In this document: piece after piece, positions 52,541 to 57,678 of the stretch
How positions within the stretch are numbered: position 1 is the first letter of the stretch
Layout: each line of letters opens with the position of its first letter
Assembly: GCA_951406725.2 (NCBI GenBank)
Contig: OX597815.1
Location: forward strand, 142,600,001-142,664,000
Length of the DNA stretch: 64,000 bases
DNA from: Octopus vulgaris
Lineage: Eukaryota
Direction of reading: 5' to 3'
Translations under genes and position numbers: made by a program
The notes under the pieces: model-generated
Database searches by the model: none
Told to the model about the DNA's origin: nothing
Seen by the model: the letters and a program-made list of their open reading frames with translations, nothing else

Positions 52541-52725
52541 TAGTTGCCAACCAAATGTGTTGTCCTATACAGGACAGTGCTTTAACCCCAGGAAGACATG
52601 TCGTTTTCCTGGGGCTATAAGAGTCAGTAGCACTGTCCTCTATAGGACTCCACGCTTGGTTGGCAATTATATGTTATGATTCCGTATTGATACGGTTTAC
52701 TTCTTGATCAAAGATTTACTATAGC
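52541..52725 (+). mobile_element. Fold-back element with 3' tail, in (TA)n
   Basis: Arms tagttgccaaccaa..aggacagtgct..ccccaggaa / ttcctgggg..agcactgtcct..ttggttggcaatta (52541-52669), then ~55-nt unpaired tail. Confidence 0.75.
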
Positions 52726-53262
52726 TATATATTTATATATATATATATATATATATATATATATATATATATACATACATACATACATACACACACACAC
52801 ACACACACACACACACACACACACACATATATATATATATATATATATACATATACGCACACAGATGGCGAAACAGTAAGAGAGTGAGAGAGAGAGGGGG
52901 GGACGAAAGAGAGAAATAGAGAGAGGAGAAAGAGAGAGAGAGAGTGACTTGCTACGTCACCCCGAAAGTCAAAATATTTTGAAAGCGAAAAGAACCAAAT
53001 GCGTGTTGATAGTGGTAGTAACGACAGTGTAAGAGGTAGCTATAACGTTATCAATCGGCAGAGTTTTCCCGTTGGCACTGATTTTTACTATCGGCTTTGA
53101 TGTAGGGTGACTTGTCACCCAGTTCGTGTTGTCGAATCAAACAACGCTGGCTTGCCGCGTAAACTCGCAAGTAATTAAGTACTGCACTCTACGTATCTAC
53201 TCAATAGTCATTTTAAACAAAAACAGATTCACACACACACACATGCATATATATATATATAT

Positions 53263-53490
53263 ATAGAATGGTTGTATACTGTCAATCTAACACGAACCTG
53301 ACAGTAGGAGGGTACACCACCACTGTATAGCCCTAGGAAGCATCGACGCCTCCTGGTGGCTTCCTAGGGCTATACAGCGGTGGTGTACCCCCCTACTGTC
53401 ACGTTCGTGTTAGATCGACAGTATACAACCATTCTATCGCCCCACCACCGTACATGTCTCTACGAGAGATTTAGAAATTTAGTATTTCTT
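53263..53490 (+). mobile_element. Fold-back element with 3' tail, in (TA)n
   Basis: ~79-bp near-perfect arms 53263-53341 / 53359-53437, then ~52-nt tail cgcccaccaccgtacatgtctctacgagag.. Confidence 0.85.
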
Positions 53491-53514
53491 ATATATATAT
53501 ATATATATATATAT

Positions 53515-54115
53515 TAACCCGTTACATGGGTTATCTACAACTTGACATATGGCAATCATCACTACAAAAATATGGTACTTCATTTCATTGCTATTCAAAG
53601 GAGAAATGGAAGAGTTACTTAGATGATTGCTTTATACTTTAGAACGATATCATGGACAAATTTCCCGATTTCAAAATAATGCTCAACAATACCAATAGCA
53701 ACATGCAATTCACCATGGAACACAGAAATATACAACTTCCTTTTCTTAACATCCTAATTAAAATAGTCAGTAACCTCATCGAAACGGACATCTTCTTTAA
53801 GCCCACAGACAGATTCAAAACAATACCTATTATTGAACTCATGCCACTCAAAACACATAGACGATTCTGTACCATAGTTTCGGATACCAATGCTCGTGAA
53901 CGATGACTCCTTGAACATAAATCAACACTAATCATGAGACATTATGCAACGTCATTAATAAATGATGGGATTAAACAAGCGAAGGAAATAGAGATACAAA
54001 CATTAAGGGAAGTTAACCGAAATACTACAGCAGCTCTAAAATTATTCCCATACATCTCTACACACAACCCTAGAAACAATGAGGCTTTCAACATCATCAT
54101 CAAAAATTGCTTACC
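53515..54115 (+). mobile_element. Decayed Penelope-like RT C-terminal/thumb region
   Basis: YMGYL, SYLDDCFIL, NMQFTMEH..LPFLNILI..IETDIFFKPTD, RRFCTIVSD, FPYISTHNP: motifs typical of PLE reverse transcriptases. Confidence 0.8.
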
Positions 54116-54486
54116 TCCCTTGCATGTAATCTTTTCATTCAGGTACCATTAGACACAACACCGTTTGGAAATCGGTGTTCATTCAAAGATAGTGAGCAGC
54201 TCTGACGCTACGGGTATGATTTTAAATCTCTATAATGATTCATAATAAATATTTATATACTTCATAATTCAGCCTCAAATAATCTAATTTTCATGTATAT
54301 ATCTTTGCTTTTCTTAAAAAAGAACTTTATTTTTTATATCTAATGTGCATTTTCTGCTTTCTTTTTACTTTTCCCCTATTTATACCACGTGTACTCTTTT
54401 TTCTTTGAAGCCTATCTCTATTTTATATATATGTATATATATATATATATATATATATATATATATATATATATATATATATATAC

Positions 54487-54625
54487 ACCCTTAGGCCTGT
54501 TTTTTCCTTGTGCTTGTGCGTATATAGACGTGTTTAATACACACGTCTATATACGCACAAGCACAGGGAGAAACAGGCCTAGGGGTAAAAGTCCTCTATT
54601 TACATGATATCGAGATCTCTTTCAT
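54487..54625 (+). mobile_element. Fold-back element with short tail
   Basis: acccttaggcctgttt..tgtgcttgtgcgtatatagacgtgt / acacgtctatatacgcacaagcaca..aaacaggcctaggggt (54487-54586). Confidence 0.75.
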
Positions 54626-55041
54626 TCTTTTGTTGTCTTTCCATTTTTATCAATATCTATATATATATATATATATATATATATATATATATATATACAT
54701 ATATACATATATACATATATATATATATATATATATATATATATATATATATATATATATATATATATATATATATTCGTGTGTCTGTGTATATATGTGT
54801 GTGAGAGATCGTGTATTGGGGTATGTCGTAGTTTTTCTGTACTGGGCAGTCAGATGCGTACCTCGCCTTGATTCTGTAATAATCTGTGTAGCCAAATGAT
54901 CAAAAGGAGCCACACCATCAGCTGCTGCACCTTTTACATTCGTCTACCATAGATGTTCAAAAGGGTAGTTGATGAACACTCCTTTAACAGTAAAGAACTG
55001 CATATCAGATTGTAGTTACTGAAACTATGTATATATACATA

Positions 55042-55255
55042 GAGTTAATCCAAGCAAGAAAACACAGAAAAAAAACACAGCAACGCGAGGACGTGCAACA
55101 ATTAAAGTATTATTTGACGCTCAGGAAAGAAGGGAAGGAGGGTTTAACGTTTCGAGCGGAGCTCTTCGTCGGAAACATAGGAGAAGGAAAGATCCCGAGA
55201 AGGGAAGACAGAGGAAAAAAATATTTTTGCTGGTGGTGCTCAAGAGATCACATGT
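55042..55255 (-). mobile_element. ~210-bp hammerhead-like unit, copy 3
   Basis: Reverse complement of 41363-41572. Confidence 0.75.
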
Positions 55256-55997
55256 TGCTACATAAATATATATATATATATATATATATATATATATATA
55301 TATATATATATTCCACCATGCTGTCCTCCTGACATGTAATCTTTCATGGATGACTAAAGCAACTTTTGAAAGTGTAATGCCCCTTGAGATACTGTACGAT
55401 TCAGAACTCCAGCAATCTATGGGCACTATATTTCAGTAACTGAAAGACAATAGGATTTCTTTCCTACTGCTGGGTATATGCAGACCGAAGTTCGAACCTG
55501 TATCGAACGCTGCTGCTGTTCGAAGATTTTAAGTTCAAAGAATTTTATTTCACATATTTTTCATATTTATTTTGCCATTTCTATAGGTGTGTTGTTATAT
55601 ATAGATTTGTGTGCATATGCGTGTGTGTGTGTGTGCTAATTATTAATAAAACTATATTAGATTATATTGCTAGCTATTTAGACTAAGTCCATGATCCCTA
55701 TTTTAACGCTTTTCTATATCTTGTCTTTGAAATCACCTTTTCATAGTCTTTTGAAAGTAAATGTTTGTTTCGCGTAAATTCTTCACAAAACGTTCCAGGG
55801 TCATTTAGCTGGCATATTTGGGAATTACAGCTGTAGATTATGTGTCATAAGAAAATTGCCATCCCTTGACTTACTCTCTGTGAGATCCTTACTGTAAACG
55901 GAGATTAAGAGCTACATTTATACGGGATGTTTAGTTTTTGATCATTTCATGATTACTTAATCCAGACACATATTAGGCGTAAAACAAATTATATACT

Positions 55998-57678
55998 ATA
56001 AGGGACTAAAGCCATCTGAAAATGGCTAGGGACAGGGCAGGGTGGTGGGGGTGTTACTGTTGCATTTAGCCCCAGGCGAACATCGACGTCACCAGAAAGG
56101 CTCGACACCGTCACGGTGTCCTTATCCTGCAAAGGGAGGTAATTCCCCGATGAAGCGGAAACCACACACGGACCATGGTTTCAAGGTGTATTGCCTATCG
56201 TCGGCGTGTGTCTATATCTCTTTTAGAGAATTATTATTGCTTTCGAACAGATTTTCGAAATCAGCAAATGTATTTTGCTTGAAAATCTATATATGAATAT
56301 CCTGCAGAGTGAGGATTCGTCGAGGAAGCGGAAGCCTACCCCACGCCGACGATAGGCAATACACCTTGAAACCATGGTCCGTGTGTGGTTTCCGCTTCAT
56401 CGGGGAATTACCTCCCTTTGCAGGATAAGGACACCGTGACGGTGTCGAGCCTTTCTGGTGACGTCGATGTTCGCCTGGGGCTAAATGCAACAGTAACACC
56501 CCCACCACCCTGCCCTGTCCCTAGCCATATTCAGATGGCTTTAGTCCCTTATGTTATCGAGCAGTTACTGTCTATATCTCTTTTAGAGAATTATTATTGC
56601 TTTCGAACAGATTTTCGAAATCAGCAAATGTATTTTGCTTGAAAATCTATATATGAATATCCTGCAGAGTGAGGATTCGTCGAGGAAGCGGAAGCCTACT
56701 CCACGCCGACGATAGGCAATACACCTTGAAACCATGGTCCGTGTGTGGTTTCCGCTTCATCGGGGAATTACCTCCCTTTGCAGGATAAGGACACCGTGAC
56801 GGTGTCGAGCTTTCTGGTGACGTCGATGTTCGCCTGGGGCTAAATGCAACAGTAACACCCCCACCACCCTGCCCTGTCCCTAGCCATATTCAGATGGCTT
56901 TAGTCCCTTATGTTATCGAGCAGTTACTGTCTATATCTCTTTTAGAGAATTATTATTGCTTTCGAACAGATTTTCGAAATCAGCAAATGTATTTTGCTTG
57001 AAAATCTATATATGAATATCCTGCAGAGTGAGGATTCGTCGAGGAAGCGGAAGCCTACCACACGCCGACGATAGGCAATACACCTTGAAACCATGGTCCG
57101 TGTGTGGTTTCCGCTTCATCGGGGAATTACCTCCCTTTGCAGGATAAGGACACCGTGACGGTGTCGAGCCTTTCTGGTGACGTCGATGTTCGCCTGGGGC
57201 TAAATGCAACAGTAACACCCCCACCACCCTGCCCTGTCCCTAGCCATATTCAGATGGCTTTAGTCCCTTATGTTATCGAGCAGTTACTGTCTATATCTCT
57301 TTTAGAGAATTATTATTGCTTTCGAACAGATTTTCGAAATCAGCAAATGTATTTTGCTTGAAAATCTATATATGAATATCCTGCAGAGTGAGGATTCGTC
57401 GAGGAAGCGGAAGCCTACCACACGCCGACGATAGGCAATACACCTTGAAACCATGGTCCGTGTGTGGTTTCCGCTTCATCGGGGAATTACCTCCCTTTGC
57501 AGGATAAGGACACCGTGACGGTGTCGAGCCTTTCTGGTAACGTCGATGTTCGCCTGGGGCTAAATGCAACAGTAACACCCCCACCACCCTGCCCTGTCCC
57601 TAGCCATATTCAGATGGCTTTAGTCCCTTATGTTATCGAGCAGTTACTGTCTATATCTCTTTTAGAGAATTATTATTG
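55998..57678 (+). mobile_element. Multimeric non-coding retro-insertion: 5' inverted segment + four 359-360-bp tandem units + ~30-bp partial unit, 13-bp TSD
   Basis: CAAATTATATACT at 55985-55997 and 57679-57691; units start at 56210, 56570, 56929, 57289, 57649; 55998-56210 is the reverse complement of part of the unit. Confidence 0.9.

Follow-up and report, generated by a model that had tools for sequence, protein, structure and literature searches.

The flagged motif is the P2-P3 part of a nested RNA domain that we found in at least seven retrozyme families, in and beyond the window (the whole 64,000-nt stretch of the Octopus vulgaris genome analyzed here). The domain is probably a binding and two-site start platform for a reverse transcriptase (RT)-endonuclease that a Penelope-like element (PLE) supplies in trans. 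We regard it as a likely RT start signal because the ends of inserted copies map to two fixed positions within the fold. RT recognition, one of the roles suggested in the preliminary description, was judged a good candidate.

Three elements in the window carried the motif. Family A is a tandem array of a 360-nt unit (56209..57679, plus strand; 4.1 copies, 99% matches) that stops at a tail end and adjoins an inverted 5′ copy (55993..56208, minus strand; 99% complementary to 56342-56557) reaching from the hammerhead to linker position +18, the equivalent of 56557. The family B copy (53265..53490) is a 5′-truncated fold-back inserted in (TA)n, with a left arm that stops in the linker (53265) and a right arm in which the motif (53363-53372) is followed by the tail, as far as 53490. 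The family C copy (52543..52725) is likewise a 5′-truncated fold-back, hit by the covariance model at 52569-52718 (plus) and 52511-52643 (minus). Its left arm (minus strand, with a deletion) stops in the linker, its right arm has the motif (52608-52617) and a decayed tail, and the truncation removed the hammerhead and the 5′ strands of P1 and P2. A decayed, 5′-truncated Neptune-like PLE RT fragment (53520..54100, plus) is a neighbor in the same TA tract, outside the element; the motif was absent from its family.

CCTRGGGCTA was located at 52608, 53328 (minus), 53363, 56067 (minus), 56474, 56833, 57193, and 57553; with at most one mismatch there were 10 matches in the window vs. 2.4 expected (0/100 shuffles). 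Every sequence stretch quoted in the preliminary description was found in the window, the one from 53.3 kb being 53306-53361 on the minus strand. The motif itself is thus real, but the elements are not otherwise dissimilar, as had been stated: they aligned co-linearly over approximately 160 nt and had the hammerhead, closing stem, and tail in common. They are diverged members of one non-coding tandem-repeat (retrozyme) lineage with units of approximately 360 nt. Nor was GTCGATG common to all three, the 52.6-kb family having GGAAGA-GATG-TCTTCC instead. GTCGATG occurred in 50 of 141 distinct cores (a non-random sample) and represents a loop that varies, in the form seen in two families, whereas conservation centers on AGCY...TRG-RGCTA.

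The family survey and the conservation figures refer to this one genome. The pattern GTCGATG-N2-5-CCTRGGGCTA, which represents families A and B, had 4053 genome matches vs. 1 in the control, showing that these families are dispersed, multi-copy, and mobile. The family G pattern, with a C-G to T-A swap in the motif helix region, had 3914 vs. 20. Units were 360 nt, 358 nt, or 361-362 nt long, inside the span of approximately 170-400 nt typical of metazoan non-LTR retrozymes, and had no ORF, and thousands of copies of the lineage were inserted into (TA)n. An inverted 5′-truncated copy, partial tandems, a one-sided 30- to 60-nt tail, and the (TA)n target were all present, and such inverted truncated copies, partial tandems, one-sided tails, and (TA)n targets are described as PLE insertion features (PMC8557442). 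Two 390-nt contigs (the unit plus 30), from runs presumed to be RNA, are compatible with a cyclic path of assembly, in which circle and tandem are indistinguishable, and they carry no weight here. Two other identities were rejected. ARAGORN found no tRNA-like gene in the window, which argues against a tRNA-derived SINE, and inspection by eye of an A-box-like stretch in families C-F showed no suitably spaced B box. The units also differ from Naiad PLEs in having hammerheads and no ORF, vs. no canonical hammerhead and an ORF with an N-terminal endonuclease. The motif was absent from the Octopus Naiad consensus sequences, as far as their 5′ parts are given in the supplement of Craig et al. (584 kb); there, CCTGGGGCT and CCTAGGGCT had one match each, where approximately 2 would be expected for any 9-mer. 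As far as these matches are displayed, both belong to another 5′ motif of Naiad, one without P1 and P3.

Each full-length unit carried a type I hammerhead. In family A it spans 56341..56384 (plus; core CCGACGA 56346-56352, GAAAC 56368-56372, palindromic loop 3 CATG), with the predicted cut after 56379 and repeats at 56706, 57065, 57425, and 56204 (minus), so that all four window units and the inverted copy have one. The order core, stem II, GAAA, cleavage triplet was kept in 21/21 copies listed, although some are decayed: stem I was only 1-3 bp long in three. Hammerhead stems covaried, and the palindromic loops were family-specific. Families A and B1 had a C at core position 4 (CCGAYGA), the core of E1 was CTGAAGA, and TTGANAA in G and D2 represents U3-A8 core covariation. 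Self-cleavage of the window units is predicted. The Hydra-1_Obim sequence, as far as its source gives it, terminates shortly past its own hammerhead.

The motif had been placed where Penelope-type elements carry their ribozyme. It is no replacement for that ribozyme, because the full-length units of all seven lineages have a type I hammerhead upstream, with the cut site 96-117 nt before the motif end. A new self-cleaving ribozyme is unlikely, and this claim mostly falls away. HDV-like ribozymes fold as a nested double pseudoknot, in which the 5′ strand of P2 and P3/L3 lie between the two P1 strands. Here the strand before GG pairs only 4-7 nt upstream, which leaves no room for HDV P2/P3, and there was neither pseudoknot support nor an Rfam match. 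Twister, pistol, hatchet, and twister-sister have class-specific conserved cores and pseudoknots; none of the four matched in Rfam (E up to 10 or 0.5) or fitted by eye. Rfam returned only sub-threshold miRNA-type hairpins over fold-backs and microsatellites, and its silence is weak evidence because it missed the hammerheads too. Likenesses to SECIS, group I P7, rRNA, twister, pistol, and hatchet were dropped after comparison by eye. If the P2-P3 arm were a second, undescribed ribozyme that cleaves itself or ligates, or an accessory for circularization, this would account for the conserved unpaired bases (AGCU / URG, A) in a covarying frame that no Rfam family fits. We consider it very unlikely, given that full-length units already have a hammerhead, whose stems covary and whose palindromic loops are specific to each family, that the P3 loop varies, that no pseudoknot was supported, and that retrozyme ligation is ascribed to protein ligases, as far as PMC7229834 describes it.

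The motif region folded as nested helices P1-P6, given here for family A (all plus strand). A closing stem, P0 (56411..56427 with 56658-56674), is followed by hairpin P1 (56429..56446, GACAC / GTGTC; 117/119 cells paired) and by the flagged motif (56448..56483), which comprises P2, P3, and an invariant A at the end. Helix P2 pairs AGCC (56448-56451) with GGCT (56479-56482), a real pairing, already proposed in the preliminary description; 103/104 cells were paired. The suspicion that AGCC of the 53.3-kb copy was an accident of the fold-back junction was unfounded: it is native, with AGCC, AGCT, or GGCC in 38 of 44 family B copies that have their native upstream arm. Hairpin P3 (56457-56462 with 56470-56475; 150/156 cells) has a variable loop, GTCGATG in this copy and GATG, GGTG, GTCGAT, or GTTCGAT as variants, and is separated from P2 by an internal loop of 4-5 nt opposite TRG (56476-56478). 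The long-range helix P4 pairs CAGTAAC (56491-56497) with GTTACTG (56564-56570) and closes the region 56491..56570; the proposed equivalence of ACAGTAAC/GTTACTGT and GGTGGTG/CACCACC proved to be a true covarying helix. Enclosed by P4 are hairpin P5b (56523-56540) and a linker of 24 unpaired nt (56540-56563), where the first copy end falls (56557). The Penelope-type tail (56558..56601) includes the 3′ strand of P4, hairpin P6 (56577-56589), and a terminus rich in A and U; 12 nt separate P6 from the second copy end.

The structure alignment comprised 26 copies of seven lineages that were 48-82% identical. In the unedited MAFFT alignment, 91.7% of 709 cells were paired, compared with 33-48% in slid controls, and 13 of 30 pairs showed two-sided change. 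A tree-aware test on the motif-anchored alignment, which leans towards structure, gave 14 compensatory events vs. 1.5 ± 1.2 under the null (maximum 7; 0/1000 nulls), bearing out the earlier proposal that Penelope-type elements have here an RNA structure that is conserved and covaries. Compensatory changes occurred in P1-P4, with six events in the 7 bp of P4 and zero on the tree in P5b. RNAalifold alone recovered P1, P2, most of P3, and P5b; P4 and P6 were absent from its prediction. The minimum free energy (MFE) fold of a single family G sequence recovered P1-P6, and that of family A favored other pairings over P2 and P4. P0 consisted of family-specific duplexes in A, B, C, and G. Together with an extended hammerhead stem I, it is modeled to make the monomer a rod capped by a multi-helix domain. 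The unpaired bases around P2 (AGCU opposite UGG/UAG, and A after P2) were conserved across lineages that are approximately 50% identical. It is extremely improbable that the shared letters reflect inheritance alone or a DNA-level promoter element, with no function as RNA. All seven lineages do descend from one ancestor, and promoters are reported in PLE pLTRs (PMC6765202, as far as it covers them), but the excess of compensatory events and the failure to find a tRNA-like gene in the window speak against this reading.

The region had also been described as a pseudoknotted RNA, which was not supported. The pairing ggtg/cacc vs. aggagg/cctcct on which that claim drew formed no consensus helix, and CCTCCT was found in only 1 of 46 other family B copies tallied. 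A pseudoknot between the 5′ strand of P3 and the C-rich run after the 5′ strand of P4, perhaps as an alternative conformer, is highly improbable. Visual inspection suggests that several families could form 3-4 of its pairs, and three of four columns had some two-sided changes, but 64% of the cells were paired (one column 0/26), compared with 96% for the competing P3 on the same strand. This purine-rich strand pairs readily with any C/U run, and the 6-bp version was private to the left arm in this window.

Among 161 copies scored for their ends, 40 continued into the next unit and 121 ended; a score filter left out copies ending up to about 20 nt from the motif. The 3′ ends fell into two groups: 62 were in the linker, 53 were at most 35 nt after P6, and six were elsewhere. 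TA repeats adjoined 90 of the 115 copies ending in the linker or after P6. Inverted pairs had one arm ending at each site, linker and tail, in 25/30 cases (one L226 pair counted twice), which matches the two internal start sites of a Penelope-like RT in vitro. The linker was variable in sequence and constant in length: 24 nt in A, B, C, and D, 23 nt in G, and 24 nt by count in copies outside the model (L270, L312, and family E). The motif lay 74-109 nt upstream of the first copy end, a distance that appears to resemble the spacing in Anolis Poseidon. The exact ends of copies coincided with microhomology at TAT; priming on (TA)n, and not structure, may therefore account for some of the clustering. 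The clustering of ends ties P4, P5b, and P6 to initiation; the putative role of the flagged P1-P3 arm is argued from conservation and position.

Under the preferred reading, tandem retrozyme units would be transcribed, and their hammerheads would cut as dimers via the palindromic loop 3 to give unit-length linear or circular RNA. The RT-endonuclease would bind the P1-P2-P3 arm, with the conserved unpaired bases as its contact points. The linker, kept unpaired by P4 and P5b, would allow priming at its UAU from a nick in (TA)n DNA, and a second nick would prime 3′ of P6. The two cDNAs would yield an inverted-plus-tandem insertion with the tail on one side only.

A less likely, though serious, possibility is that the fold serves the RNA's own life, by compacting or protecting the monomer or circle, binding a host protein, or controlling hammerhead folding. 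RT starts would then be set only by P4-P6 or AU-rich microhomology, with P1-P3 playing no part in RT binding. Consistent with this, stable folding extends over the entire monomer (circular MFE z −7.8, −3.4, and −7.4 for A, C2, and G), and the P1-P3 arm was in none of the PLEs examined. Retrozymes also build up as abundant circles, and a block of the hammerhead other than self-pairing has been proposed, as far as PMC7229834 reports. Such a scaffold leaves unexplained the fixed linker length and the ends that bracket the P4 3′ strand and P6, and the conserved unpaired bases around P2 exceed what packing needs.

Partner searches used the neighboring RT fragment, the Pfam GIY-YIG domain, and a Nematis-like C-terminus as queries; the best 150 candidates per search were scored, so rare PLE families can be missed. 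The preliminary description had suggested checking which autonomous ORF lies upstream of the motif. The genome encodes young, intact PLE proteins, among them the 781-aa Neptune-like ORF of L098 and those of a Nematis-like family. None of 130 PLE loci (Neptune-like and Nematis-like families; 3′ ends and covariance model) had the fold as its pLTR. The covariance model gave nine matches above 40 bits in these loci (one insertion lying in two overlapping loci). Of the cases examined, those of L088, L270, L312, and L228 were neighboring insertions or one chimera, L097 and L258 were on the opposite strand, and L185 was upstream of the ORF. Copies of families B and D are followed by a gag-like ORF that was considered as ORF1 of the partner; it belonged to a nested ORF1-only LINE-type element with target duplications.

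The retrozyme element class is already known. The domain bears on how Penelope-like RTs choose internal start sites and how retrozymes borrow RTs, and a covarying fold, in which one start lies in a linker of constant length and the other follows a hairpin, makes exact mutants testable. Telomerase RNA presents a single-stranded, helix-bounded template to its RT. The domain here differs in that it lacks a pseudoknot and a repeat template and matched no telomerase family in Rfam, and the likeness is only one of analogy. More tentatively, we suggest a comparable template platform for the sister group of TERT, to which PLE RTs belong (PMC8557442): P1-P3 would be the RT binding site, P4 and P5b would fence a priming window fixed at 24 nt, and two RT copies would begin at the two fenced sites of a single RNA. 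If so, a portable 170-nt RNA tag could steer Penelope RT-endonucleases to insert any cargo, and the seven lineages would be a natural mutagenesis map of the tag.

The closest published relatives are the metazoan non-LTR retrozymes (Cervera and de la Pena 2020, PMC7229834; Li, Clavereau and Pollet 2026, bioRxiv 10.64898/2026.07.22.740005), likewise tandem and non-coding with a type I hammerhead per unit, present in thousands of dispersed copies, and proposed to be mobilized by PLEs. Mussel units are 350-390 nt long, compared with 358-362 nt here. Circular RNA and cleavage were shown for the published retrozymes, whereas the present families are known from sequence, and a pLTR donor, unlike in the published cases, was not found in our 130 loci. 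As far as these papers go, they present MFE drawings of single sequences or trees of pLTRs, and neither a domain that covaries across families nor a link to RT start sites; our literature search returned no paper describing this fold, and the supplements of both may show related mussel or frog folds. The minimal PLE hammerheads (Cervera and De la Pena 2014, PMC4209133) share the short palindromic loop 3, dimer-type architecture, and U3-A8 covariation; here, by comparison, the fourth core position is C in A and B1, and the flagged motif is separate and downstream.

In Anolis, the Poseidon protein initiates RT internally at two sites that delimit the tail, and it cuts and extends both strands of the DNA (Frangieh et al. 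2024, PMC11167929). Activity was retained by 5′ truncations down to +20, the shortest active one, and needed the first 172 nt of the ORF but no hammerhead cleavage (PMC11167929). The likeness to this element (Poseidon_Ac, PAc), drawn from its description, extends to a hammerhead followed by two start sites approximately 90-190 nt downstream, a 30- to 60-nt tail between the starts, and AT-rich targets. PAc differs in that the region lies inside the ORF and has an AC-rich stem-loop, with no covariation model in the source as far as it goes. R2 elements, as described in PMC6765202, use an HDV-like ribozyme and a pseudoknot and insert into rDNA, compared with a hammerhead, nested helices, (TA)n targets, and internal initiation here. 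In R2, the RT protein nevertheless binds structured RNA beside the ribozyme, independently of self-cleavage, and the non-autonomous R2 parasites (SIDEs) retain the RT-bound structure (PMC6765202).

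All quoted stretches of the motif were found in the window. The pattern GTCGATG-N2-5-CCTRGGGCTA matched the genome 4053 times (reversed control, 1), and these matches represented family A, to which the 360-nt tandem array at 56209-57679 (+) with the flagged motif at 56448-56483 belongs, and family B, that of the 53.3-kb fold-back. The 52.6-kb element was a truncated fold-back from a third tandem family, C (358-nt unit), which has GGAAGA-GATG-TCTTCC instead of the GTCGATG that the preliminary description had assigned to all three. Families D, E, F, and G were also reached via the motif; the family G version, AGCT...TGGAGCTA, had 3914 genome matches (control, 20). 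Twenty-six copies, hand-picked for subfamily spread from 119 distinct cores plus a few later ones, were co-linear over approximately 160 nt, with lineage representatives 48-82% identical. The three elements, previously considered otherwise dissimilar, are homologues, and their similarity therefore comes from common descent, not convergence.

The motif had been placed where the ribozyme was expected; full-length units carry a type I hammerhead upstream of it, with the predicted cut site 96-117 nt before the motif end. After the hammerhead core (CTGANGA, CCGAYGA, or TTGANAA) came stem II, GAAAC, a short loop 3, and GTC, which one copy replaced by GCC. In 16 of the 21 copies listed, loop 3 was palindromic, and the palindromes differed by family (CATG, TCGA, CCGG, TGCA, ATGCAT, GC, AT, TA). 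That the fold around the motif is a second ribozyme is very unlikely. The window's two small fold-backs lost their hammerhead through 5′ truncation. Because tandem 358-362-nt units each carry a hammerhead, the families are metazoan non-LTR retrozymes, as described in the accessible portions of PMC7229834 and bioRxiv 10.64898/2026.07.22.740005, an element class already known. Minimal hammerheads were present in three other families of Penelope-like element (PLE) ends that do not have the fold, at window positions 55172 (-), 41443 (+), 43504 (+), 40346 (-), 40633 (+), and 41099 (+). The near-perfect 100-nt hairpin at 54487-54587, which adjoins (TA)n and has CCTAGGGGTA at its end, is probably another fold-back; it gave no match to the covariance model.

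From 5′ to 3′, the RNA fold consists of hairpin P1, helix P2 (AGCY/RGCT), an internal loop of 4-5 nt opposite TRG, hairpin P3 (6 bp, loop variable), long-range helix P4, and hairpin P6, with the flagged motif forming P2-P3. P4 (7 bp) surrounds a single-stranded linker together with hairpin P5b and, except in some families, a second hairpin, P5a, which is variable. When the MAFFT alignment was left unedited, 91.7% of its 709 cells were paired (33-48% in slid controls), with two-sided changes in 13 of 30 pairs. RNAalifold recovered P1, P2, most of P3, and P5b; P4 and P6 were absent from its prediction. The covariation suspected earlier was borne out by parsimony over 27 pairs of an alignment anchored on the motif, with P6 omitted because its partner had been picked by best fit. 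The 14 compensatory events (P1, 1; P2, 1; P3, 6; P4, 6; P5b, 0), an upper view since this alignment leans towards structure, compare with 1.5 ± 1.2 (maximum, 7) when the same substitutions were redistributed on the same tree, and 0 of 1000 redistributions reached 14. Mere descent, or a DNA element, is a scarcely credible account of the fold. The previously proposed pseudoknot, taken as a conformer of this RNA, is highly improbable: 64% of its cells were paired, one column at 0 of 26, and it vies with P3 for the same strand. In the modeled monomer, closing stem P0, which is family-specific, and an extension of hammerhead stem I would give a rod, with the hammerhead and the junction at opposite ends. 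The MFE structure of the family G monomer recovered P1-P6; in that of family A, P2 and P4 were not formed. The fold was not found in Rfam scans, nor was a description of it in literature searches, outside which two relevant supplements fell.

Just 5′ of the hammerhead, B and D units contain an ORF1-only LINE-type element (L061:5050-7250, L062:3900-6400, L112:2200-4700, L158:1600-4300; approximately 450 aa, CCHC knuckle, AATAAA end), which also forms free tandem arrays in L147. It is bordered by 14-16-nt duplications that match the sequence of the respective subfamily, suggesting that targeted insertion occurred repeatedly. Relative to L166, the ORF1 copy at L149:2873-4225 (-) had 193 differences, 159 of them A-to-G, and the copy at L156:2419-3783 (-) had 239, 168 of them A-to-G; in two sister copies, A-to-G accounted for just 11-12 of 42-48. 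The first two copies likely represent hyper-edited RNA that was then reverse transcribed.

For the autonomous PLE that would supply RT-endonuclease in trans, we read the 3′ ends of the neighboring RT fragment's family and of several other Neptune-like and Nematis-like families. Over 130 PLE loci, the covariance model found only neighboring retrozyme insertions and one chimera, and no partner. Given the canonical hammerhead and (TA)n targeting, Neptune or Hydra would fit better than Naiad, as these are described in the accessible part of PMC8557442. In its supplement, the 5′ regions of Naiad-3_Chem, Naiad-4_Chem, and Naiad_Adux have a hairpin in common and, after it, the stretch CCCCTRGGG...CCCTAGGAGG, which could form a pseudoknot; this motif differs from the flagged one. 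At L088:883-1180 (-), a Neptune-like PLE stops before the endonuclease and is immediately followed by an F-type retrozyme unit that is complete and includes the tail; this one case is possibly a template-switch chimera and could be a clue to the partner enzyme. Many intact copies exist of a young Neptune-like PLE with two ORFs (L097, L098, L102). Its ORF1 (approximately 450 aa) overlaps an RT-GIY-YIG frame of 781 aa, and its pLTR has a hammerhead core, TTGATAA, as well as repeated CCAAT/TGACGT boxes. A very young Nematis-like family (L227-L256; approximately 98% amino-acid identity among copies) has a 1.2-kb microsatellite-rich 3′ UTR, two end points separated by approximately 60 nt, and a hammerhead-like core of non-canonical sequence.

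The linker, which separates P5b from the P4 3′ strand, differed in sequence among families yet measured 24 nt in each of A, B, C, and D, and in G 23 nt; counted by hand, it was also 24 nt in family E and two subfamilies outside the model. Among 161 distinct copies scored, a survey that left out those with fewer than approximately 20 matching nt after the motif, 40 ran into the next unit and 121 ended: 62 of these did so in the linker, 53 no more than 35 nt beyond P6, and 6 elsewhere. Copies ended at TAT-like sites, and TA repeats adjoined 90 of the 115 with an end in the linker or after P6. One arm ended at each site in 25 of 30 outward-facing inverted pairs, an arrangement also seen in the A and B insertions of the window and, judged by eye, in C. 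Given the two end sites, this paired-arm pattern, and the precedent of Anolis Poseidon, the 3′ ends of copies are most likely RT start sites, with the tail comprising the P4 3′ strand and P6.

Most likely, the fold is a platform at which a PLE protein supplied in trans would recognize the RNA and initiate copying. The observed parts of this reading are the homology of the families, their hammerhead motif, the covariation, the length of the linker, and the positions at which copies end. Retrozyme units would be transcribed, hammerhead cleavage would occur and circles would form, the PLE protein would bind P1-P3, and priming would take place within the linker. A scaffold or host-protein site is a possible but rather doubtful alternative. 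The flagged arm is tied to RT solely by conservation and by its position, with the first start 74-109 nt downstream of it.

Dimer-type architecture, including the U3-A8 swap, is known for PLE hammerheads from the accessible text of PMC4209133 and PMC6765202 and is likewise present in these families. In Anolis Poseidon, according to the available part of PMC11167929, both target strands are extended, hammerhead cleavage is dispensable, and RT initiates at two internal sites that delimit the tail, which the two end sites here resemble; the distance of the flagged arm from the first start is similar to the span required by the Anolis RNA.
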